From the NCBI GenBank assembly GCA_963759765.1, contig CAVXAL010000002.1, positions 621,710 through 685,709 on the forward strand: a stretch of DNA of 64,000 nucleotides, in the 5' to 3' direction. This DNA is from Candidatus Aminicenantes bacterium (GTDB lineage: Bacteria; Acidobacteriota; Aminicenantia; UBA2199). The notes under the pieces were generated by a model that was given only the letters and a program-made list of their open reading frames with translations, did not search any database and was not told where the DNA came from. Positions 8,997 through 52,073 of the stretch are shown piece after piece; position 1 is the first letter of the stretch, and each line of letters starts with the position of its first letter. The translations under genes were made by a program, and so were the position numbers.

Positions 8997-9047
8997 GCCC
9001 TTACTTTCAGGTCTACAACCCGATCGAGTGTTGGCTGCTGAAATTTA

Positions 9048-9064: not shown

Positions 9065-9071
9065 CTTAAAA

Positions 9072-9455
9072 CTACGGCTTAATATGAAGAACCGAGCTCT
9101 CCGAAAGGTGTATTGCCTTCAGCAGTATTTCTGATTCATTAGATGGCCATCCAATAATATTAGTATGACGTTTTGGGATATTATCTGGATCCAATTTTAA
9201 GCAACAACTATAAATTGAAGATGCGGTTATATCAGCGCGTGCTTTTAAACTACTTGGTCTATTTTTCTCAACTTGAACTCCTATTAACCATATTGCGCTT
9301 TCAGACAAGTCGTATATTCTAAAAACTGACAATTTCTTATTTTGAGGCGGCATGAAGGCACGATGCTTAACACAGTTATTTTCTGAACTAAAATCTTTTT
9401 TTGAAAAAAGAAATCTTGATAGTTTTTCAGATGCTTTGATTTGATGATTATTCAA
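9072..9455 (-). CDS. hypothetical protein (island gene 3, 127 aa)
   Basis: AT-rich ORF; start 1 nt after stop of gene 2; no family recognised (..KHRAFMPPQNKKLSVFRIYDLSESAIWLIG..RHTNIIGWP..). Confidence 0.5.
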   Translation of the reverse strand: MNNHQIKASEKLSRFLFSKKDFSSENNCVKHRAFMPPQNKKLSVFRIYDLSESAIWLIGVQVEKNRPSSLKARADITASSIYSCCLKLDPDNIPKRHTNIIGWPSNESEILLKAIHLSESSVLHIKP

Positions 9456-9456
9456 A

Positions 9457-9942
9457 TTAAAATCCCAACCTTTTAAAATTTTCTATTATTACTGGTGGCA
9501 ATGCGTTTTCGAAATATTCATTCCCATGAATCTGATTCCCCCCAAATATTCCCGCATATTTAATAATTTTTGTATTCCCAATATTTATTATAAAAATTCT
9601 ATTTCTGTCCTTCCTCCATTCAAATCCCACATCTCCATTTGGTTCGATACAAATTTCAGGGAATGGAATAAAGGATGGTATAAGATTTAGAAATTTTTTA
9701 GCTTCAAAGTAAGCATCAATGGATAAGGGTTTGGCTCCCTCTCCATCCCAATCTTCATTCTTACATTCAATTTGTAACTTTTTTAATTCATAAAGGATTT
9801 GATTAAGAAACAATTCGTTAGATGTCTTGTTCTTCCAAATTGGTTTATTTTCATAAATCTTTTCATCTTTGGAGCTTGTACAACTTTGATAACTATTGAT
9901 ATTATAGCATATAGGTGTGGAGCATATAGCTGGGGTGCTCAT
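9457..9942 (-). CDS. hypothetical protein (island gene 2, 161 aa)
   Basis: AT-rich ORF; its ATG overlaps stop of gene 1 (ATGA); Cys-rich N-terminus CSTPICYNINSYQSC; no family recognised. Confidence 0.5.
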   Translation of the reverse strand: MSTPAICSTPICYNINSYQSCTSSKDEKIYENKPIWKNKTSNELFLNQILYELKKLQIECKNEDWDGEGAKPLSIDAYFEAKKFLNLIPSFIPFPEICIEPNGDVGFEWRKDRNRIFIINIGNTKIIKYAGIFGGNQIHGNEYFENALPPVIIENFKRLGF

Positions 9943-10685
9943 ATAAATAACTCCTTTAATTTTTCTGTTATTAAAGAGAAAAAAATTCTATTTTTGAAAT
10001 TTCGTAACCTTTCAAATAATTCCCAAGCTTCGTTATTTTCAAAAAATTCTTTATGTTTAAATACATCTATATCCAGCATTATTGGACAATACCTTGGATC
10101 AACAATCTGTTCGAAGACTTGAGTGATAATTGCTGTAATTCCGGTATCTGGTTCTTCAATTACAACTTTATTAAAGAAACTATTTACTCCTTGTGGCAAT
10201 TCTTTTGGAATAATCGGCGCTGCTGTTAAATACTCATTAAAATCAAGCAATGGTTGCGGATATAAAGGAATACTAATTTTATTTATATACCTAACTGCAA
10301 CTCTTATGATTTCAGGATTTACTAAATCTCTATATATCTTCCAAATTCTATAAGCCTCATCTCTAAGATTCTCCCAGCATTCATAAGGGTTTAACCGATT
10401 AAAAGTAAAGCCATCTATTCTTGTTTGGACAATCTGCTTTTTATCAATAGTTCTAAACCAATACCCTTTTAAAGTTTCTGAACTTGTCGATAAAGGTTTT
10501 AAATCTTTTTTTAACTCAAGCTTACTTTCAAATTCAATTGCCTCTGTTTTTTCTGGATATTGATTTTTTATTTTTTCGTGAATAGAAAGAAATTGTTTCA
10601 CATCAAAATCACTTTTCAACTTTGTCTTTAAATCAATTAATGCTTCATAAATCGGAGCATTATTAAGATGAGCTATCTCTGCCAC
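9939..10685 (-). CDS. hypothetical protein (island gene 1, 248 aa), possibly TIGR04255-like uncharacterised family
   Basis: GTG start at 10685 with GAGGAAAA SD. N-terminal LNNAPIYEALIDL and central RVAVRYINKISIP resemble my recollection of TIGR04255 proteins; unverified. Confidence 0.5.
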   Translation of the reverse strand: MAEIAHLNNAPIYEALIDLKTKLKSDFDVKQFLSIHEKIKNQYPEKTEAIEFESKLELKKDLKPLSTSSETLKGYWFRTIDKKQIVQTRIDGFTFNRLNPYECWENLRDEAYRIWKIYRDLVNPEIIRVAVRYINKISIPLYPQPLLDFNEYLTAAPIIPKELPQGVNSFFNKVVIEEPDTGITAIITQVFEQIVDPRYCPIMLDIDVFKHKEFFENNEAWELFERLRNFKNRIFFSLITEKLKELFI

Positions 10686-10707
10686 TTTTCCTCACATTTT
10701 TTATTTT

Positions 10708-10737
10708 ATTATAGCAGCACTCAATCTTTTTTCTCAA
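10708..10737 (-). promoter_or_regulatory. candidate sigma70 promoter for the island operon (TTGAGA-18-TGcTATAAT)
   Basis: Read on minus strand between purA stop and island gene 1; extended -10 TGn. Confidence 0.35.
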
Positions 10738-10745
10738 TAAATTTT

Positions 10746-12020
<1,275 letters not shown>

Positions 12021-33522: not shown

Positions 33523-34002
33523 CTCTTCCTTTTTTAACTTGACATTTTTCCGTGAATTGAACTCGCAATAGAATTTTTGGGAGGTCTTGATATACCAGTC
33601 TTCTTTGGAATAGGCGGTGAAGATGACCTCGCCGCTGATCGTTTGCCTGCCGATCAGGGCGGTTTCACTGACTTTGAAGGGGATTTCGATCTCTTTCTGC
33701 AGGTCGAGAAATACCTTCTCTTTCTCCTGGACGGTGGGTAAGTTGAGTTCCGAGCCGATGAAAAACATCTTGGCAAAGGAGCAGTTTCCGTTCTCAGCCA
33801 GTTTGATCATGAATTCCGGGTTCGAGGATATCTTGATGTCGGAACGGGGGCTGATCTTGATTTTCAGCATCCCCTCCTCCCCTTGGCGGATGATGGGGGG
33901 AGTGACTGTCGCATCGATCTTGAGAAAATCCTCCTGGCTGATCAGGGGGAAGCAAATGGTAAGAAAAATTCCCCCGGCAATGGCGTTGCGGCGGAAATTC
34001 AT
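33523..34002 (-). CDS. secreted hypothetical protein, lower-GC; 3' end unresolved
   Basis: MNFRRNAIAGGIFLTICFPLISQ signal peptide. ORF frame has no stop until 32542, which would mean a ~480-nt antisense overlap with the epimerase gene; true end probably near 33523-33560 with an indel. Confidence 0.35.
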
Positions 34003-34091
34003 GTCAGTCATATATACCATTTTGCCTGCGCTGTCAATCAGCTGCAGAGCCAGTCCGAGGGGTGGTAATGGGGGTTGGTGCTGAAAGAGAG

Positions 34092-34508
34092 CTAGTTTTG
34101 CGACCCGGCCGGTAATTTTCTCTCGAGAATATCTTTGATGGAGATATACAGAAATCGGGTCTGTATAGCCTGTTCCAGAATTTCCCAAACCGATTTGGCC
34201 AGGCAACTTTCCACCAGCGGACATTTTTTATCGTTCAGGCAATCGGTCAAATATATTTTTTCGTCGAAGGCGTCCATGATCATCTTGATAGTGATCTCCT
34301 CTGGTTTCTTATTCAACACGTAGCCGCCGTATATGCCTTGGACGCTTTTGATGATGGCGGCTTTTTCCAGAGGGCCGGCCAGTTTACGCAGGTACTTGGA
34401 GGATACCTTGATCTCGTTTCCCAGCTTGCTGGTATTGATCACCCGGTTTTCCCGGGCGATCCCCAAGACCATGCGCAGGCCGTAACGGATTTTGGTATTC
34501 ATTTTCAT
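34092..34508 (-). CDS. Rrf2 family transcriptional regulator with three-Cys Fe-S ligand motif
   Basis: N-terminal wHTH (KIRYGLRMVLGIA); CLNDKKCPLVESC (C-x6-C-x5-C). Confidence 0.8.
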   Translation of the reverse strand: MKMNTKIRYGLRMVLGIARENRVINTSKLGNEIKVSSKYLRKLAGPLEKAAIIKSVQGIYGGYVLNKKPEEITIKMIMDAFDEKIYLTDCLNDKKCPLVESCLAKSVWEILEQAIQTRFLYISIKDILERKLPAGSQN

Positions 34509-34671
34509 GAAAGAAAATATAACTCATCTGGTTTTAATTGTCAATTGTCAAGTCTTTTTTTCTTAATTTTTTATTTTGTGTAGAAAAAAGGTAAATTTTC
34601 CTGCAATATCGGCTATTTTGCTAAATGAACGCTTTCCGGGTCTTGTGCTGAAAAAAAGTGAGGTGCTGGCC

Positions 34672-35670
34672 CTATTTCTCTTTTTGCAGCCCTTTCAGAA
34701 ATTCCTCGGAAGCTATCTTGAGCTTGCGCAGTTCGGTGAATTTGGCCACCAGCCGGTCCCTTTCTTTCCAGTGCTCGTCATGTCTGCTGGAATCGATCTT
34801 GTCTTTTTCCACGTTGAGCAAGCCCATGTAGCTCCAGGGGTCCGGGTAATTGGGTTCCAGCTCGGCTGCTTTCTGGAGTGCGGCCAGTCCCTTATCGATG
34901 ATTGCTTGCCTTTCCTTGGGTGCCATCAAATCGGGCGGGGTCTGATAGCTGTGGGCCCAGCAGAGATGGCCGACGCGGTAATAAGCGTCCGCCAGCATGC
35001 TGGTTTTTTCCTTCTCATCGAGGTCGGTCAGCTGCTGGATTTTTTGGAGCCGCAGCTCTTGGTATTTCATAGCGTCATCCCATTTTTTACGGTCAAAATA
35101 ATAGCGGGCCAGGAACAGATACCCTTCCGGGTCATTGGGGTTGAGGTCGATCCGTTTCTGGAACATCTCCACGGCTTTGTCGCCTTTATTGTAACTGGTA
35201 TAGAAATCCGCCAGCACGCTGTAAATCTTGGGATCGTTGGGATTGTTTTCCAGTACTTTAAGAAAATATTTTTCGGCTTCCTCGAAGTTTTTCGTCTTGT
35301 CGTTGATATCGCCCAGGGCCAGGATAATGTCCTTGTTATTCGGGTCCACGTCCAGGGCCTTCTGCAAGTAATCCTTGGCATTGGCGGCCAGTTCTTTGTT
35401 ATTCGGCGTATCGTCGCCGGGCTTGTAGAGCATGGCGTAGGCGGTTCCCAGGTAGAAATAGACGGCTTTGAAATTGGGATTGAGTTTCAGGGCCTCCTCG
35501 TATTCGCTGACCGCTTTCTTATACTTTTCTTCCGAATAGTATTTATTGGCCGTTTTAAAATGACTGTTGGCTTTCAAGTTAGCCACTTTGAATTTTTGGC
35601 AGGCAGAAAAGCCGAGAACGATCACCCCCAGCAAGCACATTACCAGCAGGGCGGATGACAATTTTTTCAT
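34672..35670 (-). CDS. TPR-repeat lipoprotein
   Basis: MKKLSSALLVMCLLGVIVLGFSAC lipoprotein signal with GGAGG RBS; multiple TPR units (LNPNxxxxYxxLGxxY). Confidence 0.75.
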   Translation of the reverse strand: MKKLSSALLVMCLLGVIVLGFSACQKFKVANLKANSHFKTANKYYSEEKYKKAVSEYEEALKLNPNFKAVYFYLGTAYAMLYKPGDDTPNNKELAANAKDYLQKALDVDPNNKDIILALGDINDKTKNFEEAEKYFLKVLENNPNDPKIYSVLADFYTSYNKGDKAVEMFQKRIDLNPNDPEGYLFLARYYFDRKKWDDAMKYQELRLQKIQQLTDLDEKEKTSMLADAYYRVGHLCWAHSYQTPPDLMAPKERQAIIDKGLAALQKAAELEPNYPDPWSYMGLLNVEKDKIDSSRHDEHWKERDRLVAKFTELRKLKIASEEFLKGLQKEK

Positions 35671-35758
35671 ACGGACCTCCTCAACATTGAGATACATATA
35701 TAACGGAATATCGCCCAAAAGTCAAGTTTCATCCGGCCTCAATCTGCTGCCGGGGAAT

Positions 35759-36793
35759 TTAACTGTCTCGATCTTGTTGCATGGTCTCCCAGGTCTTTTT
35801 GAAGATGTCCGGGGAATCCAGATGGTAGGGGCATTTCTCCACGCAGGAGCGGCAGGCGACGCAGTCCTTGAAGCTTTTATTCAGGGCATTCAGCCGTTCC
35901 CAGACCCAATCCTTTAGTTCGTAGAGGAAATAGTAGTTCTTCAGCACGTGCAGGAAAGCGATGGGCAGGCCCTGGGGGCAGGGCATGCAGTATTCGCAGC
36001 GGCGGCAGAAATTCTCACCCAGCCGTTCCTTTTCCCGTTCCAGGTGTTTCCGCTCGGAAGCGGTCAGGGGAGTCAGGTGCTGCAGTGCAGCCAGGTTGCG
36101 GCGGATCTGGGTGAGGGAATTCATACCCGGGATGGCCACCTCGATGCCGCTGCTGAAAATGAAACGGAAGTTGAGGGCGATTTCGCGGATGTTGCCGCCG
36201 CCGATCGGTTTCATGGCGATGGTGCCGATGTGCTGGCGACGGGCATGGGGGAGGAGCTCTTCGGCGGCCGCGCTTTCGATGTGGTTAAAGGGAACTTGGA
36301 TGGTGGCAAACGCAAAGGCCTGCAAGGCCTTGAGCACGATCCAGGGTTTGTGGCCGGAAAGTCCGATATGCCGGATTTTACCACGCTCCTGGGCCTTGAC
36401 CATGGCGGACAGCGCGCCGCCCGGCGCCAGCACTCTGTCCAATTCGGCCTCGCTGGCCACGTTGTGACACTGGTAAATATCAATGCAATCGGTTTGCAGC
36501 TGGCGCAGGCTGGTCTCGATGTCCCTTTCCACCTGGCCAGCGTCGCGGCTGAGTGTCTTGCTGGCGATGACCACCTGACCGCGGTGGCGGGAAAGGACCC
36601 GACCCAGCTTCAGCTCACTGTCGGTATAAACGCGGGCGCTGTCGAAAAAATTGATGCCCATCTCGACGGCGCGTTCCAGCAGCCGGTCGCTGGCGCGCAG
36701 AGAGAGCCGCTGGATGGGAATGCCGCCCATGCCCATGCGGCAGACCTGCAACCCGGTGCGCCCCAGCATGATCGGCGTGTTTGCCTTGGCCAT
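35759..36793 (-). CDS. aldo/keto reductase with C-terminal 4Fe-4S ferredoxin-type cysteine cluster
   Basis: AKR barrel motifs (GMGGIP, FFDSARVY, IGLSGH); C-terminal CRRCEYCMPCP...CVACRSCVEKCP; start at MAKANTP to avoid overlap with maf. Confidence 0.75.
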   Translation of the reverse strand: MAKANTPIMLGRTGLQVCRMGMGGIPIQRLSLRASDRLLERAVEMGINFFDSARVYTDSELKLGRVLSRHRGQVVIASKTLSRDAGQVERDIETSLRQLQTDCIDIYQCHNVASEAELDRVLAPGGALSAMVKAQERGKIRHIGLSGHKPWIVLKALQAFAFATIQVPFNHIESAAAEELLPHARRQHIGTIAMKPIGGGNIREIALNFRFIFSSGIEVAIPGMNSLTQIRRNLAALQHLTPLTASERKHLEREKERLGENFCRRCEYCMPCPQGLPIAFLHVLKNYYFLYELKDWVWERLNALNKSFKDCVACRSCVEKCPYHLDSPDIFKKTWETMQQDRDS

Positions 36794-40012: not shown

Positions 40013-40639
40013 ATGGTCGATATCCTGCGCGTTGCCGGTCAGTTTTTGATTGTGCTCTTCGCCCTCTCGGTGCACGAGTCGGCGCACGCCTGGACGGCCG
40101 ACCGTTTCGGCGATCCCACGGCCCGGTTGCTGGGCCGGGTGAGCCTGAACCCGCTGGCCCACATCGACCCGATTGGAACCATCATTTTACCCTTGCTGCT
40201 GGCCGTGATGCATGCACCGGTATTCGGCTGGGCCAAGCCGGTGCCGGTCAACCCCTACAACCTGCGCCACCCTCGTCGCGACAGCGTGCTGGTTTCCGCC
40301 GCCGGCCCTCTCTCCAACCTGCTGACGGCCCTGATTTCCATGATCTTTTTTTTGCTGTTGAAGAACAGTGCGCTGCTGCGTTCGGTTTCCCTGCTCACCG
40401 TGTTGTTCTACCTGATCGTGATCAACATCTACCTGGCGGTCTTCAACCTCATTCCCATTCCCCCGCTCGACGGCAGCGGCATCCTCGAGGGCTTTCTCAA
40501 GGGCGAGGCTCTTTCCCTCTATGAACGGCTGAGGCCTTTCGGATTTATCATTTTGATCGCCGTGATCTATCTGGGCCTGCTGGATGTTGTCGCCCGCCCG
40601 ATCCTGCAACTGGTGACAAGCATCCTGGGGATTTCCTGA
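40013..40639 (+). CDS. site-2 protease family zinc metalloprotease (M50)
   Basis: HESAH zinc motif in TM helix, LDGS motif, multiple TM segments. Confidence 0.75.
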   Translation: MVDILRVAGQFLIVLFALSVHESAHAWTADRFGDPTARLLGRVSLNPLAHIDPIGTIILPLLLAVMHAPVFGWAKPVPVNPYNLRHPRRDSVLVSAAGPLSNLLTALISMIFFLLLKNSALLRSVSLLTVLFYLIVINIYLAVFNLIPIPPLDGSGILEGFLKGEALSLYERLRPFGFIILIAVIYLGLLDVVARPILQLVTSILGIS

Positions 40640-40640
40640 A

Positions 40641-41600
40641 ATGGAACGGAAGACGGTGATGAGCGGCATGCGGCCCACCGGTGCCCTGCACCTGGGCCAC
40701 TGGGAGGGCGCGCTCAAAAGCTGGCTGCAGCTGCAGCAGACACAGCCGACTGCTACTTTTCCATCGTCGACTGGCACGCCCTGACCACCGAATACCAGGA
40801 TCCCCAGCACATCCGGCAGAACATCCGCGAAGTTCTGCTGGACTGGCTGAGCGCGGGCATCGACCCGGAACAGAGCGTCATCTACCTGCAATCGGCGGTC
40901 AAGGAGATCGCCGAGCTGTTCCTGCTGCTGGGCATGATGACGCCCCTGGGCTGGCTGGAGCGGGTGCCCACCTTCAAGGAGCAGCAGGCGCAGTTGCAAG
41001 ACCGCGACCTGAACACCTACGGTTTTCTCGGCTACCCCCTGCTGCATGACCGTGGACATCGTCATCATGAAGGCCGAACGGTGCCGGTGGGCGAGGATCA
41101 GGTGTTCCATCTGGAACTGGCGCGAGAGATCGTCCGCCGTTTCAATACCTTTTTCGGCGCCTATTTCCCCGAGCCGCAGGAGTTTCTCACTCCCATCCCC
41201 AAACTCCCCGGTCTGGACGGCCGCAAAATGAGCAAGAGTTACAACAATGCCATCTATCTGAGCGACAGTGCCGCGACCGTGACCGACAAGATCAACCCCA
41301 TGGTGACCGACGTCCGCCGCAAGCGGCGCAGCGATCCCGGCGTGCCCCAGGATTGCCCGGTATTCGCCCTGCAGCAGGCCTTCTCCAGCGCCGAGGAGGT
41401 CGCCGCCATCGACCGCGATTGCCGCACGCGCGGGCATCGGCTGCCTGGACTGCAAGAAGATCGTCATCCGCCAATATCAATGAATTTCTCGAACCGTTCC
41501 GCCAGCGGCGCGCCCGTTACACCCAGGCGAATCTGGACGAGATTCTGGAAGCCGGAAACCGCCAGGCCCGCCAGCGGGCCGGCCAGACCATGGCCGACGT
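40641..41600 (+). pseudogene. trpS: tryptophan--tRNA ligase with at least five frameshifts
   Basis: Fragments MSGMRPTGALHLGHWEGAL / ADCYFSIVDWHALTTEY... / GYPLL-MTVDIVIMKAER-VPVGEDQVFHLEL / KMSKS / CRTAGIGCLDCKK / INEFLEPFRQRRARY found in alternating frames; shifts ~40742, ~41040, ~41085, ~41440-41480. Confidence 0.75.
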
Positions 41601-41615: not shown

Positions 41616-42371
41616 AACCTGTGATGGAAGCCGAGCGGTTACCAGGTACAGCACCGACTATTTCGAGGGGCCGCTCGACCTGTTGCTGCACCTGATCCGC
41701 AAGAACAAGATGAACATCCTGGAGATCCGCCTCTCGCAGATCACCACCGAATATCTCTCTTATCTCGAACACCTTCAGGGCATCAATCCCTCGCGGGAGA
41801 GCGATTTTCTGATGACCGCCGCCACCCTGATTTACATCAAGTCGCGGTCGCTGCTGCCCCGGCCTGAAGAACCTGGCCGACGAGTCGCCTGAGAAGCAGC
41901 TGATCCGCACACCTGATCGAGTACGAGAAGATCCAGAAAATTTCGGAGAATGCTGCAGGAAATGGAATACACCGAGCTGCTGCTCTGGCGGCGGGAAGAG
42001 ATCGGCGAGAACTTCGACAACCGCGAATACATGCTCTGAAAGAGGTGTCGGCTTTTCAACTGGCCGAAATCTTTTTCGCCATGGTGCGCAAGAAGGAGGA
42101 AGAGCAGTTTCTTTACATTTCTTCCAAGCACTATTCGATTGCCGGCAAGCGGCAGGAGATCCTGGCGCTGCTGGAGGAGAGCGGCTATCTGGATTTCAGC
42201 GATTACGTGGCCAAGCGGGATTCGATCGAAGAGATCGTGGTGAGTTTTTTCACTATCCTGGAGATGGTCAAACGCCACCTGCTGATCGCCATTCAAAAAG
42301 AGCTGTTTGGACGCATCCAGCTCTGGAAGCTGGACCGGCTGGAAGCGCAACTGCGGCGGGGGAAAGCGTGA
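41616..42371 (+). pseudogene. scpA: segregation and condensation protein A with several frameshifts
   Basis: YFEGPLDLLLHLIRKNKMNILEI (41683 ORF) and C-terminal SAFQLAEIFFAMV... (42045 ORF) in different frames; intervening region has stops in all frames. Confidence 0.7.
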
Positions 42372-42940
42372 GCTCGGAAATCCAGAAGCAGCAGCAGGCT
42401 TTTATCGAGGCGCTCCTCTTCGTTTCCCGTGAGCCGGTGGAGCCGGCGCGCCTCATGGATTTTTTGGGCATCCAGGACATCAGCGAGTTCGAAGCCCTCC
42501 TCGCTGCCATGGAGCAGGGGTTCCGCGATCCGGCCCAGGGCCGGGGCATCATGCTCAAGAGGTGCGGCAACGGCCTGCAGCTGGTCACCCAGCCCGATTT
42601 CCATGAGCAGCTGAAGCAATTCTTTACGGTCAAGCACTATGCCCGGCTCACCCTGGCATCGCTGGAGACGCTGGCCATTATCGCCTACAAGCAGCCGGCC
42701 ACCCTGGCCGAGATTTCCGATTTGCGCGGCGTCAATTCCGCCACTTCCTTGAAAACCCTGCTGCAGAAAAAGCTGATCAAAATCTCCGGTCGCAAAAAAG
42801 TGCCTGGCCTGCCCGCGCTCTACTCCACCACCCCGGAATTCATGACCTACTTCGGCCTGAACGACCTCTCGGAATTGCCGTCCTTGGAGGAATTGACCGA
42901 GCTTTTCGAGGAAAAAGAACAACCGTCCCTGTTCAAGTAG
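42368..42940 (+). CDS. scpB: segregation and condensation protein B
   Basis: Intact 190 aa; FIEALLFVSREPV, LETLAIIAYKQP wHTH blocks; ATGA overlap with scpA end. Confidence 0.85.
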   Translation: MSSEIQKQQQAFIEALLFVSREPVEPARLMDFLGIQDISEFEALLAAMEQGFRDPAQGRGIMLKRCGNGLQLVTQPDFHEQLKQFFTVKHYARLTLASLETLAIIAYKQPATLAEISDLRGVNSATSLKTLLQKKLIKISGRKKVPGLPALYSTTPEFMTYFGLNDLSELPSLEELTELFEEKEQPSLFK

Positions 42941-42943
42941 GAG

Positions 42944-44062
42944 GTGACAATGGAACACTGGGTCAATCCCCATGTGCTGGAGATCAGTCCCTATAAAGCC
43001 GGCAAGCCCGTCGAGGAAATCGAGAGGCAGTACGGCCTGAAGCGGGTGGTCAAGCTGGCCTCCAACGAGAATTGCCTGCCCCTGCCCGAAGCGGTGCGCC
43101 AGGCGGTGCGGGACGAACTGGACCAGGCCCATCTCTATCCCGATTCCGATAATTATTATCTGCGCCAAGCCATTGCCGGCTACAACCGCATCCCCATCGA
43201 TAACGTCATTGCCGGCGCCGGTTCGGTGGAACTGATCAAAATGATCATCCGAGACGTTCCTGAAACCGGGTGAAACCGTGCTGAGTTCGGAAAAGACATT
43301 TTCACTATACAAGATTGCCACCACCCAGGTGGCCGGCAAGGCCGCTTTCATTGAGGCGCCGATGGACGAGCAGCTGCGCTTCGACCTGGAGCAGATCCAG
43401 CGCCGGGTGAATGAAAAAACCAAGATCATTTTCTTGACCAATCCCAACAACCCGACCGGGACCATCGTCTCGGGCAAGAAAATCATGGCTTTCATCCGGC
43501 GCGTACCCGAAGACAAGATCATCGTGCTGGACAACGCCTACCAGGAGTACGTGGACAACCTGACCGACTACGTGACCGGCATCCCTCTGGCTCTGGAGCG
43601 TCCAAACATCATCGTCCTGCGCACCTTCTCCAAGATTTACGGCCTGGCCGGTTTCCGCATCGGCTACGCCATGGCCAATCTGCGCGTCATCGAGGTGCTC
43701 AACCGGGTCAAACCGCCCTTCAACGTGACCCGCCTGGCGCAGCGGGCGGCCATCGCGTCGCTGGCCAGCGACGAGTTCAAGAACCGGTCGGCCGAATTGA
43801 ACCGCCGCAACAAACCGCAGTTGCTGGCCTGGCTGCAGGACTCGGCCTGCGGGTGCTGCCCTCGCAGACCAATTTCCTGCTTTTTTTCCCCGGCGTGGAC
43901 GTCAATCGTCTCAACGATCTGCTGCTGCGCGAAGGAGTGATCATGCGGCCGGTGGGGGGTTTCGGCGTGCCCGACGGCATCCGGGTGACCGTGGGCCTGG
44001 AAGAGGAGAACCGTTTCTTCATCGACAAGCTCAAAAAATCCCTGGTGGCCATGCGGTCCTGA
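42944..44062 (+). pseudogene. hisC: histidinol-phosphate aminotransferase with two frameshifts (~43260, ~43848)
   Basis: KLASNENCLP, LTNPNNPTG, TFSKIYGLAGFRIGY, C-terminal LPSQTNFLLF in three consecutive frames. Confidence 0.75.
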
Positions 44063-45592: not shown

Positions 45593-46849
45593 ATGATAAA
45601 AAATTCTATCTGCGTCTTAGTGGTCTTGCTGGCTGGAGCCCTGCTGCTTCAAGCCCAGGGCCAAGAGAAAAAATACAATCTGCAGCGGGCCTATATCTAC
45701 CAGGAAGAAACGCTGTTGATATCGGACACCGACCTGAATTGCTCCTATTTTTTCCGCAATGGCAAGTTCCCCGATGAAATACGGATTATCGGTTCCGAGC
45801 AGATGGATAGCAAACGCATTGGCTACAGTGACCTTGACAAACTCTTTATCAACCGCGGCAGCCAAGAGGGTTTCAAGGAGGGGGATAAGCTGTTGATCCT
45901 GACCGAGGGTCATATCTTTCGCGGTCCCCAAAAGGGGCAGGCCTCACTGGGCCGCTATTACCTGAAAAAGTCGTTGGCCGTCATCACCTGCATTTACGAT
46001 CACCAGGCGGTGATCACGCTGCAGGAGGGGTGCAACCCGGTCTACCAAGGCGATATCGTGGTGCCTTACAAACCGGAAGAGAAAATCTACCAGAAAAAGC
46101 CGGCCTATAACGAATGCCGGATTCCTGCCCGCGGTGCGACCGGCAATATCGTCTACAACGACCTCTACATTGATATCCAAAAAAACCTCGCCGGCGACTT
46201 CAATTATGTGACCGTGAACCTGGGCACGGACCAGGTGCGGCGCGGCACCTTCCTGCTTCTCTACCGCATCCTGCAGCCGGGCCTGCCGCCGATCATTATC
46301 GGCATGGGCATTGTCGTCAATCCCGAAAGTAACAACTCCACAGTCAAGATTCTGGATTCGGCCCGGGAGATCAAGGTCGGCGATTACGCGGTGGTCCTGC
46401 CCGAGGTCAAGGTTGCGCCACCGCCCGTCGAAGTTGCCCCCCCGCCGGAAGTGGTGCAGGAAACCGCGCCGGTGGTCGCGCCTCCCAAGGAGGTTGAGAA
46501 GAAGGAAGCGAACCTGATGATGGAAATGCTCTTTGAGATCGGCAGCAAGGATGTGGCCCAGGCCTATACGGCCGACTTTGCCAAGATCGCTGACTTTGTC
46601 AAAGACAAAAGCGAATACGCGGTCATTTTGCGCGGTTACTGCTGCAGCATCGGTGCGGACGAATACAACTTGAAGCTTTCCCAGGAGCGCACCGAAGCCG
46701 TGAAAGCGATTCTGGTCGACCAGTACAAGATCGATCCCGCCCGCATCGAGGCCTATTATTATGGGGAGAAAGGCAGCCCCTATGACAACAGCCTGGAGTC
46801 CGAGCGGCGGCGAAACCGGCTGGTGCGCATCGAGGTTGTCGGAAAATGA
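45593..46849 (+). CDS. OmpA-family protein (signal peptide, Pro-rich linker, C-terminal OmpA-like peptidoglycan-binding domain)
   Basis: VAPPPVEVAPPPEVV linker; C-terminal GYCCSIGADEYNLKLSQERTEAVKAIL and RRNRLVRIEVV. Confidence 0.75.
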   Translation: MIKNSICVLVVLLAGALLLQAQGQEKKYNLQRAYIYQEETLLISDTDLNCSYFFRNGKFPDEIRIIGSEQMDSKRIGYSDLDKLFINRGSQEGFKEGDKLLILTEGHIFRGPQKGQASLGRYYLKKSLAVITCIYDHQAVITLQEGCNPVYQGDIVVPYKPEEKIYQKKPAYNECRIPARGATGNIVYNDLYIDIQKNLAGDFNYVTVNLGTDQVRRGTFLLLYRILQPGLPPIIIGMGIVVNPESNNSTVKILDSAREIKVGDYAVVLPEVKVAPPPVEVAPPPEVVQETAPVVAPPKEVEKKEANLMMEMLFEIGSKDVAQAYTADFAKIADFVKDKSEYAVILRGYCCSIGADEYNLKLSQERTEAVKAILVDQYKIDPARIEAYYYGEKGSPYDNSLESERRRNRLVRIEVVGK

Positions 46850-47412
46850 AAACCACCGCCTGGGCCTTGATTGGACTTTTGCTGGTGGCCATTGTGCCGC
46901 TGGCGGCGCAGAGCGTCAATCTGATGGAGCTGAAGAAAAAGGAAGAAGAGCGGCGGAAAAAGGCGGAAAAGTCCAAAATCGTCCTGACCGACACCAACGT
47001 CGGGAAAGTTGCCGGCAGCGAAAAAAAGTACGGTTACGTGGAAGTGGAGGGCACCGCGGCCGCCACCACAGAGGAGGCGGCGCAAACGGAAGGCACTGCT
47101 GCCGAACCGCAGCAGCCGATCGACGAAACCAGAACCCCCGAATACTGGCAAAACCTGAAGCAGGAAATGGAAAAGCGCATCAAGGAATTGCAGGAGGGCA
47201 TTGCCAGGCAGCAGACGGACCTGAACAAGCTGTGGACCGATTACTACATCAAAAATACTCAAACCCAGCAGGCGGTCATCAAGGGCTCGATCAGCCAGCT
47301 GAGCAACCAGCTGGAGAGCGATAAACAATCCCTGCGCCAGGTTCAGACGGATCTGCAAAACCTTTTTGCGCGGGCGAGGAAAGCTGGTATTCCGCCGGGC
47401 TGGTTGCGCTGA
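46846..47412 (+). CDS. secreted coiled-coil hypothetical protein
   Basis: Signal peptide MKTTAWALIGLLLVAIVPLAAQ; start overlaps ompA-family stop (ATGA). Confidence 0.45.
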   Translation: MKTTAWALIGLLLVAIVPLAAQSVNLMELKKKEEERRKKAEKSKIVLTDTNVGKVAGSEKKYGYVEVEGTAAATTEEAAQTEGTAAEPQQPIDETRTPEYWQNLKQEMEKRIKELQEGIARQQTDLNKLWTDYYIKNTQTQQAVIKGSISQLSNQLESDKQSLRQVQTDLQNLFARARKAGIPPGWLR

Positions 47413-47540
47413 GCCGCCACCACTCGGCGATCCGTTCCAGGCGCTGTTTTCCGGGAATCGTGGGGCGGATCCCGCTTATAGCCTGTTTCTTGTGAACTAA
47501 ATAAAACACGACCGGACGGCGTATAGCACAGTGAAAACCC

Positions 47541-48083
47541 ATGGACGAGCGGGAACTCATCGGGCGTTGCCTGCGCGGTGAAACGGCTGCCTTCGGGCCT
47601 CTGGTTGAAAAATACCAGACGCCGGTCCTGGCCGTGGCCTACGGCATCCTGCGCGACCGCGAAGAGGCGCGCGATGCCGCCCAGGAGGCGTTCCTCCAGG
47701 CTTATTCCCATCTGGCTTCGTTCGATGCGGGCCGGCCCTTCAAGAACTGGCTGCTGGCCATCGCGACCAAGCGCAGCCTGGACCGGGTACGGCGCCGACG
47801 CACGTTTCTGGGTTTCCTGCGCCGCTACGAGGGATACCTCGGCCACGGCCAGGAGAGTGCCGAGAGTGCCGTCCAGGCGGAGGACTTTTTCGAGAAAATG
47901 GTCGGCCGCCTGAATCGCCGCGAGCGGTCGGTGATCTCGCTTAAAATCAGCGGCGATTTCTCCTTCACCGAGATCGCCGACCTTCTCGGCTGCAGCGAGA
48001 GTACTGTGCGCGTCCACTACTTCAACGCCCGCCGCAAGCTGCGCCGACGGATGAACGACGAATCCCGGACGGGCGATAAATGA
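47541..48083 (+). CDS. RNA polymerase sigma-70 factor, ECF subfamily
   Basis: Region 2 (FLQAYSHLASFD..FKNWLLAIA) and region 4 (FTEIADLLGCSESTVRVHYFNARRKLR). Confidence 0.85.
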   Translation: MDERELIGRCLRGETAAFGPLVEKYQTPVLAVAYGILRDREEARDAAQEAFLQAYSHLASFDAGRPFKNWLLAIATKRSLDRVRRRRTFLGFLRRYEGYLGHGQESAESAVQAEDFFEKMVGRLNRRERSVISLKISGDFSFTEIADLLGCSESTVRVHYFNARRKLRRRMNDESRTGDK

Positions 48084-48097
48084 AAGAGGAGGAGAGC

Positions 48098-48586
48098 ATG
48101 TGCCGGCTAATCAGGCTATTGTACGTTCTGGTTCCCCTGGGCTGGCTGCGTTCGCGTTTACTGCGGCACCATCTGGAGTCCTGTCCGAATTGCCGGCAGC
48201 ACTATGGCCTAGAAGAAGATGTCTGGCCGCTGCCTTCGTGGATACTCAATGACGAAAGCCTCAGGCTGGGAGTGCTGCAGAAACTGGAAGGAAATATAAC
48301 TAATGTAGTTATAATTAAGCCGGAAATAAACTCTGCAACCTGGTGGCGCTGGGCGCTGGTGCCGGTGCTGGCCGCATTTTTTATTCTGGGCATCCGCTTC
48401 CTGAAGTTTGAGAGTATGCCGGTGTCGCCGCAGGTGGAAACGCTGACGGTCCAACCGAGTCAACCCGACATCAACCTGATTTCGGCGCGTGTCAGCGGTC
48501 AACCGGTTCAGCCTTATATAGTCAAATCCAGCCGCTCGCCCATGGTGGTGATCTGGCTGGAAAAAGAGAAACATCGGGAGGTCTAA
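48098..48586 (+). CDS. putative zinc-finger anti-sigma factor (membrane-anchored)
   Basis: HHLESCPNCRQH ZAS-like motif, single TM helix WWRWALVPVLAAFFILGI; start at ATG 48098 behind AGGAGG (ORF track 48080 overlaps sigma stop). Confidence 0.6.
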   Translation: MCRLIRLLYVLVPLGWLRSRLLRHHLESCPNCRQHYGLEEDVWPLPSWILNDESLRLGVLQKLEGNITNVVIIKPEINSATWWRWALVPVLAAFFILGIRFLKFESMPVSPQVETLTVQPSQPDINLISARVSGQPVQPYIVKSSRSPMVVIWLEKEKHREV

Positions 48587-50500
48587 ATGAAAAAAACAAC
48601 TATCGTTTTGCTGCTGGTTTTTTCAATCCTGCTGTCTTTCCGGCTTTTAGCCAATGACCTGACCGTGCTCAATGTCAAGGTGCGATTTTTTGCTGCGCCC
48701 AAGCCTGCGGAAGCGGCTCAAGCCAGCGTGGTCACCTCCTATTACCTGAAAAATTTTTTCAGCGGCAGCATGGTCGGCGAGTTCGAACAGAGCAAGCAGA
48801 TGGCCGAATTGCGCCGTATCTTCAACCTGGCCGATCTCAGATTGCTCAGCGAGGGCAACCTGGTTTGCGACACGTCATCGGGCAAGAGCGCGTTCCAGGT
48901 GGTTCGCCTGAACAACAACGAGTACCTGATTGAGCTCACCCCCCAGATGCAGGGCGAGGATATCCGCTTCCGGGTCGCGATTTCTGCCAGAACGGAGCAG
49001 CAGGAGAGCCGCAGCCTGCTCGATTCGGAATTGACAATGCCTTTGGACAAAGTGGCCGTATTCGGCTTTCGCGACGAAAAAGAAAATGCGTATTTTCTCT
49101 CCTTTTTCGTGGAAGGTCTGGTAACCGGAACACAGAAGGCCGATGAGGTCATTCTCACCATCGGCAAAGATCTTTCACTAACAATCAACCACCAGGAGCC
49201 TCTGCCATTCGCTGCTCTGGAGAACCGGCTGCGTGAAATCTTCAAGGGCCGTCAGGACAAGGCCCTTGTCATCCATGCGGACAAAGCCATTGCCTATAAA
49301 GATGTACTTGGAGTCATTGATGCAGTCAAAGCCGCGGGTGTGCAAGTGATGGACGTTGTAACTCGATTGACCGCAGAGCAGCGGCCCAAGTTGATCAAGC
49401 AGGTTAAGCCCATTTACCCTGAAATAGCCCTGCAAGCGGCCATCCAGGGCATTGTCATTGTGGAGGTGGCCACGGACATTTACGGCCGGGTACAGCAGGC
49501 GCGGGTCATCACCGGCCATCCGTTGCTCAATGACGCGGCAGTCACCGCGGTCAAGCAATGGATCTATGAGCCGCTGATGATCAGTGGTGTTCCCAAGCCT
49601 GCCCTGTTTACCGTAACGGTGACTTTCGTGATGGCGGGAGAGGAAGGAAAATCAGCAGGTGCCAGTCTGATGAAGGGCGAAGAAGAAGGGATCCGCCGGG
49701 TCGCTGCGAATCAGCGGCCCAAGTTGATCAAGCAGGTTAAGCCCATTTACCCTGAAATAGCCGCGCTAGCGGCCATCCAAGGCAATGTGGTTATAGAGGC
49801 GGTCACAGACATTTACGGCCGGGTGCAACAGACGCGGGTCATCAGTGGCCATCCCCTGCTCAACGACGCGGCAGTCAATGCGGTCAAGCAATGGATCTAC
49901 GAACCCTGTATCGAGAACGGCAAGCCGGTTCCCGTGGTCTTTGCCGTGACTGTCACATTCCGATTGGGTCAGGATCAGATGAAAAGCGGTGTCGCGAGCG
50001 GGGTCAAAGGCGGACTGGAAGGCGGAGTGCAGGGAGGAGTGGCAGGCGGGGTCGAAGGTGGTGTATCCGGCGGCGTGGAGGGTGGAGTCGCCGGCAACAA
50101 AGAAGCCGCGGTCCCGTCCATCTGGCCGGTCAGAAAAGGGTATGTTTCACTCGGTTTCACCAATTTCATCAATCCGTTTACCGGTAAAAGCGAGTTTCAC
50201 GCTGCGGTCGATATTGCCGCTGCGACAGGAACGAAAGTAATGGCAGCGGCGGATGGCACAGTCGTGGGAGCGGAGACATTGCCACGCTATGGCAACGTGG
50301 TGGTCATTGACCATGGTTACGGATATCAGACCCGTTATGCCCGCCTGGATAAGATTCTTGTCAAAATGAAACAGAAAGTTAAACGCTTTGACGTGATCGG
50401 TACTGTGGGAAACACCGGTACCTCATCCACCGGTCCCCATTTGCATTATGAGGTCCGCTACTTCGATAAGCCGGTAGACCCCGTGAAATTCATAAAGTAG
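48587..50500 (+). CDS. multi-domain envelope protein: signal/TM - ExbD/TolR-like domain - two TonB C-terminal domains - Gly-rich linker - M23 metallopeptidase
   Basis: KALVIHADKAIAYKDVLGVIDAVKAAGVQV (ExbD-like); two copies of KPIYPEIA..AIQG.V..E...D.YGRVQQ.RVI.GHPLLNDAAV.AVKQWIYEP (TonB_C); GGV(E/Q/A/S) repeats; HAAVDIA...GPHLHYEV (M23 HxxxD / HxH). Confidence 0.7.
   Translation: MKKTTIVLLLVFSILLSFRLLANDLTVLNVKVRFFAAPKPAEAAQASVVTSYYLKNFFSGSMVGEFEQSKQMAELRRIFNLADLRLLSEGNLVCDTSSGKSAFQVVRLNNNEYLIELTPQMQGEDIRFRVAISARTEQQESRSLLDSELTMPLDKVAVFGFRDEKENAYFLSFFVEGLVTGTQKADEVILTIGKDLSLTINHQEPLPFAALENRLREIFKGRQDKALVIHADKAIAYKDVLGVIDAVKAAGVQVMDVVTRLTAEQRPKLIKQVKPIYPEIALQAAIQGIVIVEVATDIYGRVQQARVITGHPLLNDAAVTAVKQWIYEPLMISGVPKPALFTVTVTFVMAGEEGKSAGASLMKGEEEGIRRVAANQRPKLIKQVKPIYPEIAALAAIQGNVVIEAVTDIYGRVQQTRVISGHPLLNDAAVNAVKQWIYEPCIENGKPVPVVFAVTVTFRLGQDQMKSGVASGVKGGLEGGVQGGVAGGVEGGVSGGVEGGVAGNKEAAVPSIWPVRKGYVSLGFTNFINPFTGKSEFHAAVDIAAATGTKVMAAADGTVVGAETLPRYGNVVVIDHGYGYQTRYARLDKILVKMKQKVKRFDVIGTVGNTGTSSTGPHLHYEVRYFDKPVDPVKFIK
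49379..49906 (+). repeat. intragenic tandem duplication: two ~195-bp near-identical copies (49379..49573 and 49712..49906), 333 bp register, encoding the two TonB_C domains
   Basis: cagcggcccaagttgatcaagcaggttaagcccatttaccctgaaatagcc identical in both copies; ends gtcaagcaatggatcta(t/c)ga. Confidence 0.8.
49988..50097 (+). repeat. coding low-complexity 12-nt repeat (GGV-X)n encoding the Gly-rich linker
   Basis: GVASGVKGGLEGGVQGGVAGGVEGGVSGGVEGGVAG. Confidence 0.7.
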
Positions 50501-50567: not shown

Positions 50568-52073
50568 ATGCGAAAGATGAAAATGGCTGTCCCTGTTCTC
50601 TTGGGTCTGCTCTCTTTTTTCGGCTGCGGTACGAAAATCCCTGCCCCCCAAACAGCTCCCGCTGCAAGGCCGGAAGAGTTCCGGCTGCTGGTTGAACAGG
50701 GCGCCCGGGAGTTTGCCAAGATGTACTGGGCCGGGTGGAAAAACGCGGCCGGCTTTTATGAAAAAGCTCTGGGCCTGAGAAGCGATGCATCGGTGAGGCA
50801 GAAGCTTTTTGATTCCCTGCTGCTGACTCTCCTGCGTGAGCTGGAATTGAACCATTCCGATGAGGCGCTGTTTGATAAAATAAAAGCTCTGTTGCCGTCT
50901 TTGCCGGCCAGGGGAAACGGTGCCCTTTTCCCCTTCGTGGAGATGATGTTCCGCCAGAGCAGCAGCAAGCTCTCCGACCGCATGGCCATCGCCGCCGCGG
51001 AGTGGAACAAGTTCAAAACCAGCCCCATTCCCGATGACCCTACCCGCGACTGGAAAAGCTATATCCATCTCGTCCTGGTCGAGCGCTGGCGCGAATTTGA
51101 GGAGGCGCGCCAGGCGGAGAATGATTTCCTGAAGCGATTTACTGATACCCATCTGGCCCGCTTCGTTGACCGCAGCCGGCTGAGCGAACAGCAGCTCGAT
51201 CAGCTGCTTGCGGAAAATCCCGATTTTTACGAACTGCTGCTGCTGCGCGCCGCCAATGGCCTGGCCGTGAAAAAATTCCAGTCCGCGGCCCGGGATTTTC
51301 TGGCCGCTCTGGCGGCCATGCCTTTTTACACGGAAGGGTACATCAGCCTGGGCAACCTCTATTTGCGCCTGGACGACGAGGAGCAGGCGCTGGCCTATTA
51401 CGAGGATGCCCTGAAGCAGGCGCCGACCAGCGGTGTCGCCCTTTTCGGCAAGGGGGTCTGCCTGAGCAACCTGGGCCGGCTCGATGAATCCAGCGCGGTG
51501 CTGAAGCAGACGATCGAAAAACAGATTTTCTACCACGGCGAGGCCTACTATTACCTGGCCAAGAACCTTTACCTGCAGAACCGCAAGCAGGAATGCCGGG
51601 GCTTCAGCGAAAGCGCCCGCTCCTATATTCCTGACTCGGTCGAGCTCAACCTGCTGTCCGGCATCCTCTATCTGGAAGCGAGCCAGTGGCCCGAGGCCGA
51701 GCGGGACTTGCGCAGGGTGCTGGAGCAGAACAGTCAGGTAGCGGACGCTCATTTCTATCTGGGCCAGATTGCCTGGCGCGCGGGGAAAAAGTCGGATGCG
51801 CCGGACCATTTCCTGAAGGCGGCGCGCTGCCTGCGCCAGGAAGCCGCCTCCTTGGCTCAGAGGCGCGAAGAGATCGGCCGGACGGATATCCCCGATGAGC
51901 AGAGAGCACGAATCGGCAACAAGTTGAAGAAGACCGAGCAACGCACCCTGCAGGATGGCCTGTTGAGGTTGGACGGCGTGCTACCCCTGCTGGCGGGCAC
52001 GGCGCAGGAAAAAGAGATAACGGCCATCCGCGCCCAGCTGGCGATGCGGCTGCAGGAGCTGGCTCAGGACTGA
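50568..52073 (+). CDS. TPR-repeat lipoprotein
   Basis: Lipoprotein signal LLGLLSFFGCG; TPR units in C-terminal half. Confidence 0.7.
   Translation: MRKMKMAVPVLLGLLSFFGCGTKIPAPQTAPAARPEEFRLLVEQGAREFAKMYWAGWKNAAGFYEKALGLRSDASVRQKLFDSLLLTLLRELELNHSDEALFDKIKALLPSLPARGNGALFPFVEMMFRQSSSKLSDRMAIAAAEWNKFKTSPIPDDPTRDWKSYIHLVLVERWREFEEARQAENDFLKRFTDTHLARFVDRSRLSEQQLDQLLAENPDFYELLLLRAANGLAVKKFQSAARDFLAALAAMPFYTEGYISLGNLYLRLDDEEQALAYYEDALKQAPTSGVALFGKGVCLSNLGRLDESSAVLKQTIEKQIFYHGEAYYYLAKNLYLQNRKQECRGFSESARSYIPDSVELNLLSGILYLEASQWPEAERDLRRVLEQNSQVADAHFYLGQIAWRAGKKSDAPDHFLKAARCLRQEAASLAQRREEIGRTDIPDEQRARIGNKLKKTEQRTLQDGLLRLDGVLPLLAGTAQEKEITAIRAQLAMRLQELAQD

Follow-up and report, generated by a model that had tools for sequence, protein, structure and literature searches.

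A predicted exported M23 peptidase carrying Ton-type domains in an ECF sigma/anti-sigma cassette of Candidatus Aminicenantes

In the present study, a gene for a 637-aa protein was analyzed within a 64-kb stretch of DNA from Candidatus Aminicenantes (hereafter, the window), and its product is best read as an exported peptidoglycan-cutting enzyme equipped with docking parts of the Ton-motor type. Several findings have emerged. First, the fusion of TonB_C and M23 domains is recurrent, not unique, and the M23-fused proteins branch off within a far larger, sigma-linked family defined by a conserved domain (the N-module) and by TonB_C domains. Second, the combination of an ExbD-like insert with duplicated TonB_C domains is new and, so far, unique to the 637-aa protein. 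Third, the gene is part of an ECF sigma/anti-sigma cassette that is probably autoregulated, as suggested by the promoter-like sequence preceding it.

The open reading frame (48587..50500, on the plus strand, as are all features given below) runs from ATG to stop, and a strong ribosome-binding site, GGGAGG, is found upstream of the ATG at 48587. The encoded protein comprises, in order, a signal peptide, the N-module, an ExbD-like domain, two TonB_C domains, a Gly-rich linker and an M23 peptidase domain. The preliminary description of this DNA had read the ExbD-like, TonB_C, Gly-rich and M23 parts in this single frame, and all of these assignments were upheld: the Pfam matches to ExbD, TonB_C and Peptidase_M23 exceed the curated cut-offs, and the NCBIfam search is consistent with them. 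In the structural model, independent domains are observed on disordered tethers (pTM 0.35). A cleavable Sec-type signal peptide of typical form is predicted at residues 1-23 (48587..48655), with MKK, a 15-residue hydrophobic core and an LLA/ND site (MKKTTIVLLLVFSILLSFRLLA/ND), and the predicted cleavage sites of relatives are of the AWA/D and ARA/E types. Inspection of the signal-peptide region revealed no His, no SHLS motif and no lipobox Cys, and the N-terminus appears typical of a cleavable signal peptide, not of a TonB- or ExbD-type membrane anchor. Residues ~26-178 (48662..49120) form the N-module, a separate, conserved and mostly beta domain that was absent from the domains first listed. 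This unnamed, family-defining domain was found in approximately 115 of the best 120 relatives (phmmer E 1e-13 to 1e-32 to these relatives), and 66 ORFs from the loci of a genome scan contain it. The N-module matched nothing in Pfam or NCBIfam; its AlphaFold2 model reached a pLDDT of 83.6 and a pTM of 0.73, and neither a PDB fold match at E <= 0.001 nor a PDB sequence match was obtained.

The relatives constitute a large, unnamed family, mainly from Aminicenantes (a phylum known here from metagenome-assembled genomes only), in which a signal peptide and the N-module are followed by one to five TonB_C domains. All 61 ORFs with a complete 3' end carry at least one TonB_C domain, and most of the proteins have two to four and no enzyme domain. 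Of the 58 loci with enough upstream sequence, 56 have homologous sigma and small anti-sigma genes directly upstream in the same orientation, as does every locus that was inspected individually. The window gene shares the domain order, the upstream gene pair and the promoter of this family. The architecture had initially been regarded as one not recognized, and this holds for the ExbD-like insert with duplicated TonB_C domains, which was seen nowhere else in the proteins, loci and metagenomes searched; it does not hold for the fusion of N-module, TonB_C and M23, which an exhaustive homologue search combined with local phmmer revealed behind a sigma/anti-sigma pair at 12 other loci, always on the N-module protein and with the M23 catalytic residues kept. 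Nine of these 12 fall among the 58 loci, which come from species-representative genomes; the GTDB representatives scanned exclude the window genome, and the best match among them is 41% identical. Some M23-fused relatives also carry an STN-like insert that scores below the Pfam threshold (16.8-25.8 bits vs 28.4). No account of the family was found in the literature on TonB_C with M23, on ECF groups with a TonB_C neighbour or on Aminicenantes with TonB.

The ExbD/TolR-type domain (residues 183-260, 49133..49366) is a lineage-specific insert. The match to Pfam ExbD (PF02472, E 2e-10) represents the periplasmic part only, because profile positions 50-126 of 128 are covered, and the segment scanned alone scored 46.4 bits against a Pfam cut-off of 25.4. 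This segment aligns end to end with the periplasmic domain of E. coli ExbD (PDB 8vgc, 8p9r and 2pfu), covering ExbD residues 63-138, and forms an alpha/beta unit in the model; the edge strand matching ExbD residues 130-134 is kept, with L132 aligned to Val. The ExbD transmembrane helix with its conserved Asp is not present in the 637-aa protein, where the N-module precedes the ExbD-like domain instead, and the TIGR02801/02803 scores are far under the cut-offs. Neither the 388 proteins nor the 66 loci examined contain the insert, metagenomes scanned for its junction yielded no close relative, and no canonical exbD is present elsewhere within the window. With the insert, the spacing is 85 aa, compared with a family median of 28. 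The TonB_C domains follow at residues ~266-348 (49382..49630; Pfam and TIGR01352; pLDDT 80-96) and ~377-460 (49715..49966), with Pfam TonB_C (PF03544; E 2.9e-32, 111.4 bits) matching two stretches, ~275-348 and, as the best stretch of the second domain, ~385-460, and with TIGR01352 scoring 73.4 bits on TonB_C. The second domain is a recent tandem duplication of the first: the copies share ~75% protein identity and 88% DNA identity over 194 nt, at an offset of 333 nt, i.e. 111 codons. The NCBIfam TonB equivalog scores of the protein are all far under the cut-offs, and no Pro-rich segment is present, the linkers being Gly-rich and predicted to be disordered.

The flexible Gly-rich linker GVKGGLEGGVQGGVAGGVEGGVSGGVEGGVAG (about residues 464-502, 49976..50092), with GGVxGGV repeats of the type used by many family members to join their domains, is likewise predicted to be disordered (pLDDT 28-42). 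The M23 metallopeptidase domain (residues ~506-637 and the stop codon, 50102..50500) is modelled with a pLDDT >90 and was matched by Pfam Peptidase_M23 (PF01551) at residues 537-632 (E 4.7e-33; 113.7 bits vs a cut-off of 28.7; profile positions 2-96 of 96). The preliminary description had left the state of the HxxxD and HxH motifs to be checked, and the active site is intact, with HxxxD at 538-542, HxH at 618-620 and H538, D542, H576, H618 and H620 invariant across a 34-sequence M23 alignment. Among solved structures, TagE (5j1l) and ShyA (6ue4) lie closest, and PDB matches to M23 DD-endopeptidases score E 4e-24 to 3e-20. As judged from its sequence, the domain is competent for catalysis as a zinc endopeptidase, most likely cutting peptidoglycan peptide cross-links.

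The gene had been placed directly behind an ECF sigma/anti-sigma pair at 47541-48586, and this placement was borne out. The sigma factor (180 aa, 47541..48083) contains Sigma70_r2 (E 3.4e-16) and Sigma70_r4_2 (E 1.4e-11) and scores 84.5 bits with TIGR02937 (sigma70-ECF). The anti-sigma factor (168 aa, 48080..48586) has a start that overlaps the sigma stop (ATGA) and ends directly before the ATG at 48587; it has a predicted cytoplasmic HxxxCxxC domain (HLESCPNC at residue 31, with a weak zf-HC2 match in Pfam), one transmembrane segment (residues 88-108) and then a predicted periplasmic tail of 60 aa. Homologues of both proteins are found upstream of N-module genes in other loci. Across the family, this tail has approximately 35 conserved residues within 60 aa (consensus F.INYIRIen.PA.A[YF].[YF]QP..S.MIIVWAEK) arranged in three short strands, the middle one proline-flanked in 42 of 60 tails, and the window tail carries a diverged version of this motif. 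A survey of 55 non-redundant loci revealed a promoter consensus, TAAAC-N17-CGTA(A/T)T, which most of them carry at a distance of 35-46 nt before the sigma start codon, with a spacing of 17 in 40 of 51. In the window, the putative ECF-type autoregulatory promoter TAAAT-N17-CGTAT (47498..47524) has the correct spacing and position, with the -35 element one base off the consensus, and is the sole match in the 64 kb, where 0.15 would be expected by chance. Sigma control of the cassette is likely because this conserved ECF-type promoter precedes it. No further copy was found in the window, and thus there is no sign of a wider wall-remodelling regulon; a generic scan for sigma-70 promoters and terminators gave nothing useful.

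Herein, we propose, at a probability of roughly 0.45, that the 637-aa protein is a sigma-induced, exported peptidoglycan endopeptidase docked via Ton-type strand-capture domains. The protein would be the output of a self-contained ECF sigma/anti-sigma cassette typical of Candidatus Aminicenantes. Upon release of the sigma factor by the anti-sigma factor, the three genes would be transcribed from the TAAAT-N17-CGTAT promoter, and the product would leave the cytoplasm via Sec and lose its signal peptide by cleavage. In the periplasm, the protein would then exist as a flexible string of N-module, ExbD domain, two TonB_C domains, Gly-rich tether and M23 domain, the last of which would cut the peptide cross-links of peptidoglycan. 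The TonB_C domains and the ExbD C-domain may each capture an exposed beta-strand and act as docking modules, and the docking sites could be outer-membrane transporters bearing Ton boxes, TonB itself or the wall, so that cutting would stay local. Even for E. coli, binding of TonB_C or ExbD C-domains to peptidoglycan is weak or disputed. ExbD C-domains and TonB_C are known to recruit partners through a beta-strand, and the solved ExbD/D-box complex, with a proline-flanked D-box, has a 2:1 stoichiometry (PMC10907165); a lone ExbD domain may therefore be unable to bind a D-box. Envelope-stress-regulated cell-wall remodelling, the role first suggested for the gene, would be plausible. Because most members have no M23 domain, the family as a whole cannot have wall cleavage as its core function, and the invariant N-module and TonB_C domains suggest a Ton-system or anti-sigma interaction at least as strongly as wall remodelling.

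Comparison with known systems emphasizes both the likeness and the difference. The M23 DD-endopeptidases (TagE and ShyA of V. cholerae, MepM of E. coli and LytM of S. aureus) are exported, as predicted here, and share HxxxD, the third His and HxH with the window protein; however, they are targeted via LysM, OapA, coiled-coil or SH3b parts, whereas the window protein has the N-module, the ExbD C-domain and two TonB_C domains, and its gene belongs to a dedicated ECF sigma/anti-sigma cassette. With TonB, the protein shares a canonical TonB_C domain with the conserved YP motif (PIYPEIA), although its match to the solved TonB2 (2k9k) is weak (E 7e-7), and it differs in having two tandem TonB_C domains, a cleavable signal peptide and Gly-rich tethers instead of an N-terminal membrane anchor, SHLS/His motif and Pro-rich rod. 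From the features encoded, the protein is predicted to be unable to transduce proton-motive force. With ExbD/TolR, it shares the periplasmic alpha/beta domain in full, down to the edge strand that captures the D-box, but it has no transmembrane helix carrying the proton-path Asp, and its domain is a single copy mid-way in a soluble protein, whereas ExbD/TolR is a dimer held in the motor. The N-module/TonB_C relatives, annotated as "energy transducer TonB" or "TonB family protein", have N-modules 33-38% identical to that of the window (e.g. MCX6556443.1) and share the signal peptide, GGVxGGV linkers, sigma/anti-sigma pair and promoter; to these, the window protein adds the M23 domain, like the 12-locus sub-clade, and the ExbD-like insert, alone. 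The rpoE-rseA-rseB and FecI-FecR-FecA systems have the same order of sigma factor, membrane anti-sigma factor and a third protein facing the periplasm, and Ton-related domains take part, but the window anti-sigma factor has a short three-strand tail in place of a FecR or RseA periplasmic domain, and the third protein gave no RseB-like fold match and is not an outer-membrane transporter. Finally, BlaR1/M56-TonB_C fusions also combine a metallopeptidase with TonB_C (relatives P0048, P0063 and P0117 carry PF05569/PF01435 with PF03544); in these, M56/M48 are membrane-embedded sensor proteases N-terminal to TonB_C, whereas the window M23 domain is soluble and C-terminal to it.

Other explanations were also considered. 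Of two serious but less likely rivals, the first is that the proteins act as a natural brake on the Ton system, in which inducible, exported arrays of soluble TonB_C domains would occupy the Ton boxes of outer-membrane transporters, the M23 domain being accessory, and TonB-dependent import would be shut down, for example when the envelope is stressed or when Ton-dependent toxins or phages attack; the ExbD C-domain of the window protein could also occupy the TonB D-box. The family core of a signal peptide and one to five TonB_C domains without a membrane anchor, together with the predicted control by a dedicated sigma factor, is consistent with such a role, and soluble TonB and ExbD periplasmic domains, precisely the two found in the window protein, each inhibit TonB-dependent transport when exported to the E. 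coli periplasm (bioRxiv 10.1101/2020.01.05.895219, Kopp and Postle). However, this inhibition required overexpression, and a brake explains neither the strictly conserved N-module nor the fusion of an active-type peptidase across a whole sub-clade. The second, of equal probability, is a role as periplasmic partner or sensor of the anti-sigma factor, along the lines of RseB or cell-surface signalling. Here, the anti-sigma tail would be bound through strand capture by the N-module or TonB_C, exposed Ton boxes or another ligand would compete, and the freed tail would undergo proteolysis, turning the sigma factor on, with the M23 and ExbD-like domains as lineage-specific add-ons. The order of sigma, anti-sigma and third component is that of rpoE-rseA-rseB, and the near-invariant gene order of the family (56/58) resembles it, but a plain regulon target would be co-transcribed just as well. 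STN domains contact anti-sigma factors in FecA-type systems, and the STN-like inserts of some M23-fused relatives point in this direction, although at sub-threshold scores; the proline-flanked middle strand of the tail resembles the proline-flanked D-box (PMC10907165), but the window tail diverges from the motif. Moreover, PDB searches revealed no sequence or fold similarity of the N-module to RseB or FecR partners.

A more elaborate and quite improbable possibility is a new kind of envelope signalling and feedback device made of soluble Ton parts, in which the N-module/TonB_C protein would hold the three-strand anti-sigma tail and be titrated by the exposed Ton boxes of loaded transporters or, for the ExbD domain, by the TonB D-box. 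If true, transporter occupancy would be coupled to sigma activation while the Ton motor is simultaneously throttled, the M23 sub-clade would additionally open the wall locally, and the system would amount to a counterpart of FecA-FecR cell-surface signalling that is soluble and independent of TonB. It is very improbable that the M23 domain is a degenerate LytM-type factor similar to EnvC or NlpD, activating amidases instead of cutting peptidoglycan: sub-threshold NCBIfam similarity to NlpD, EnvC and ActS was observed, but degenerate LytM factors are not known to keep all metal-binding and catalytic residues, whereas all five are present and invariant here, the proteins closest to the domain in structure and sequence, TagE, ShyA and MepM, are active enzymes, and this candidate was rejected on the intact residues. 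The least probable explanation, a chimeric assembly or frameshift joining separate genes (e.g. ExbD, TonB-family and M23), could draw on an insert known from one genome only and on the lower GC3 of the ExbD-like (0.55) and M23 (0.57) segments compared with the family core (0.70-0.74), but was rejected since the frame is unbroken with family-homologous sequence on both sides of the insert, the insert is the periplasmic part of ExbD only and not a whole gene, an 842-kb contig has been recorded as encoding the identical protein, and 12 other, independent loci show the N-module-TonB_C-M23 order as well.

TonB_C and ExbD C-domains are usually seen as membrane-anchored parts of the Ton motor; here, they are predicted to occur as exported modules without an anchor, in a large family closely tied to a dedicated sigma/anti-sigma switch, and in one branch of the family they are fused to a wall hydrolase. 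The Ton poisoning by soluble domains described in E. coli may have its natural counterpart in this family. Alternatively, the family may represent a new mode of targeting peptidoglycan hydrolases or a new route of information to an anti-sigma factor. The uncharacterised N-module, the ECF promoter TAAAC-N17-CGTA and the minimal anti-sigma tail are the testable objects that the present study provides.

First, the stretch at 48587..50500 (+) was found to be a genuine open reading frame of 637 aa, and the ExbD-like domain, two TonB_C domains, Gly-rich linker and M23 peptidase that the preliminary description had read in this one product were all recovered with Pfam, NCBIfam and AlphaFold2. Three Pfam families, each exceeding its curated cut-off, were assigned to this window protein: ExbD (residues 183-260, E 2e-10, covering positions 50-126 of the 128-position profile and thereby the periplasmic part alone), TonB_C in two stretches (E 2.9e-32) and Peptidase_M23 (residues 537-632, E 4.7e-33). 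NCBIfam was consistent with these calls. The N-terminus carries an ordinary cleavable signal peptide, and inspection of its sequence revealed no TonB- or ExbD-type membrane anchor. Because the protein scored far under every cut-off of the NCBIfam equivalog models for TonB, ExbD and TolR, its Ton parts are domains and not orthologues of the motor proteins. The full-length AlphaFold2 model (pTM 0.35), with pLDDT >90 for the M23 domain and ~30 for the Gly-rich linker (residues 464-502), indicates independent domains on predicted disordered tethers. The TonB_C copies share 88% identity over 194 nt, at an offset of 333 nt, and are, judging from their sequence, the product of a recent in-frame duplication. 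The M23 active site, for which a check of HxxxD and HxH had been suggested, is intact: HAAVD (538-542) and HLH (618-620) are present, and H538, D542, H576, H618 and H620 are invariant in a 34-sequence alignment. The closest solved structures, TagE and ShyA, are active peptidoglycan endopeptidases, and a degenerate LytM-type activator is an unlikely reading of this domain.

Second, residues ~26-178 are a domain rather than a spacer. This conserved segment, herein called the N-module, has no Pfam or NCBIfam match, and local phmmer detected it in ~115 of the 120 top-ranked relatives of the window protein. These relatives all share one layout, a signal peptide, the N-module and one to five TonB_C domains, frequently with GGVxGGV linkers. 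Occasional additions include N-terminal GWxTD (P0006, P0019, P0041, P0050, P0051), Poly_export/SLBB (P0013, P0059, P0087) and M56/M48 peptidase domains (P0048, P0063, P0117); diverse envelope modules seem to use this scaffold as a platform. Scanning GTDB species-representative genomes with the N-module alignment gave 58 loci, titled as Aminicenantes or a sub-taxon in 32 cases, with placeholder names in 22 (e.g. 'uncultured Eubacteriales'; intermixed with Aminicenantes sequences in the tree) and with other labels in four. The database labels of the relatives, 'energy transducer TonB' and 'TonB family protein', are contradicted by the membership tests, and literature searches yielded no paper on TonB_C-M23 fusions, on ECF groups that have TonB_C proteins as neighbours or on this Aminicenantes N-module/TonB_C family.

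The architecture had been described as unrecognised, and this claim holds for the ExbD-like insert but not for the joining of TonB_C and M23, as the N-module-TonB_C-M23 fusion recurs in 9/58 species-representative loci. When the M23 end was used as query in an exhaustive HMMER search (121,954 matches), the best 150 included P0314, P0370, P0333 and the fragment P0282, in which an N-module, a single TonB_C and M23 are combined and which are each preceded by a sigma/anti-sigma pair. All M23 open reading frames found in the surveyed loci are likewise parts of N-module proteins. A word-indexed protein search given sub-sequences of the window protein missed the full-length source itself, so that its negatives on domain fragments are unreliable. 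In unbootstrapped neighbour-joining trees, the N-modules of the other 12 M23-fused members group in a single clade, with the window protein in the sister group alongside non-M23 members, and the smallest clade holding the window M23 domain contains fused proteins only (15/15); on the basis of these two trees, a single old fusion followed by losses is favoured. Longer M23-fused relatives (L023, L030, L033, L035, L042, L045, L006) carry a ~120-aa insert between TonB_C and M23 (…ITLRFQEEPV…MPWDQA…LLDMHGLD…), which is only tentatively STN-like, since its Pfam STN scores (16.8-25.8 bits) lie under the threshold of 28.4. STN, the Secretin/TonB N-terminal short domain, contacts anti-sigmas in FecA-type transducers.

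Scanned alone, the ExbD-like segment reached 46.4 bits (cut-off 25.4), and over its whole length it can be aligned with residues 63-138 of E. coli ExbD, the periplasmic domain (PDB 8vgc, 8p9r, 2pfu, 6tyi), with the edge strand kept. Nothing else in 388 fetched proteins or 66 loci matched it, a metagenome scan yielded no near relatives of the insert junction, and the insert is thus far unique; the gap between N-module and TonB_C is 85 aa here versus a median of 28 (n=181). Across 48587-50497, GC3 is 0.55 in the ExbD-like and 0.57 in the M23 segment, whereas the family core shows 0.73 (N-module), 0.74 and 0.70 (TonB_C), a difference that may reflect domains acquired later. An assembly artefact is an unlikely source of the fusion. 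The 64-kb window contains neither a canonical ExbD or TonB gene nor another M23 gene.

Third, the ECF sigma/anti-sigma pair reported directly upstream was confirmed. The sigma gene (47541-48083, +) runs into the first codon of the anti-sigma gene (48080-48586, +). The anti-sigma product combines an HLESCPNC motif with a single TM segment and a periplasmic tail of 60 aa, and its gene ends one base ahead of the ATG of the fusion gene, itself preceded by a GGGAGG ribosome-binding site. An ECF sigma gene and a ~143-170-aa anti-sigma-like gene lie directly 5' of the N-module gene in every individually inspected locus. Of the 66 loci surveyed locally, 58 had >=1.5 kb of upstream sequence, and 56 of these carry homologues of both the window sigma and the window anti-sigma gene there on the same strand. 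Many sigma/anti-sigma cassettes come with a conserved third gene, and every part here is a known domain type. The anti-sigma periplasmic part (~60 loci) is a minimal three-strand element of only ~35 conserved residues (F.INYIRIen.PA.A[YF].[YF]QP..S.MIIVWAEK; PA 98%, W 100%), of which the window tail (48404-48583) is a divergent version; its middle strand, flanked by proline in 42/60 tails, is reminiscent of the design of the D-box, the TonB region captured by ExbD. Upstream of the sigma genes (L002-L065; ~50 Aminicenantes loci), a bipartite motif, TAAAC-N17-CGTA(A/T)T, is conserved 35-46 nt 5' of the coding start, its 4-mer pairs occurring in 47-49 of 55 non-redundant regions with N17 spacing exact in 40/51 cases; it resembles sigma-W-type ECF promoters. 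The putative window copy, TAAAT-N17-CGTAT (47498-47524), is the sole match in 64 kb (0.15 expected by chance).

The cassette lies in a chromosomal housekeeping neighbourhood. Directly 5' of it (45593-47412, +) are two envelope-related exported proteins with overlapping stop and start codons, a 418-aa OmpA-domain protein (weak FlgT_C-like N-terminal match) and a signal-peptide-bearing coiled-coil protein of 188 aa; this pair is not conserved beside the cassette in the other individually inspected loci. The gene for a TPR protein of 501 aa, whose N-terminus (…LLSFFGC) is like that of a lipoprotein, begins 68 nt past the M23 gene (50568-52073, +), and because no terminator was detected in between, the two may be co-transcribed; the gene at this position varies among other loci. 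Elsewhere, G+C falls to 0.41-0.49 at 8001-12000, with an adenylosuccinate synthetase gene (10746-12020, -), and at 34001-36000, with a TPR protein gene (34672-35718, -), against a window average of ~0.58. Two putative long ORFs (40187-41467, -, 426 aa; 42293-43534, -, 413 aa) had no Pfam match at E <= 1e-5, and no tRNA or tmRNA was found in 1-64000.

The intact reading frame, domain map, catalytically complete M23 domain, family membership and conserved promoter are established. From these we infer that the cassette would be autoregulated by its own sigma factor, and that the window protein would be exported and soluble, its M23 domain cutting peptidoglycan cross-links and its Ton-type domains serving for docking. 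TonB_C and the ExbD C-domain each recruit an exposed beta-strand, the Ton box and the D-box, respectively (PMC10907165). Two serious alternatives are compatible with this reading and not mutually exclusive with it. The protein might be a natural brake on the Ton system: in E. coli, TonB-dependent transport is inhibited by the soluble periplasmic domain of either TonB or ExbD when this is fitted with a signal peptide and exported (bioRxiv 10.1101/2020.01.05.895219), and exactly these two domain types are present here. It might also act in the periplasm as a sensor for, or a partner to, the anti-sigma factor, as the almost constant gene order, the very short conserved anti-sigma tail and the tentative STN-like inserts in relatives would suggest. 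For this cassette, the bipartite promoter motif could be used in whole-genome searches for more regulon members, and the system would be of greater interest if soluble Ton-domain signalling or the brake idea were true.
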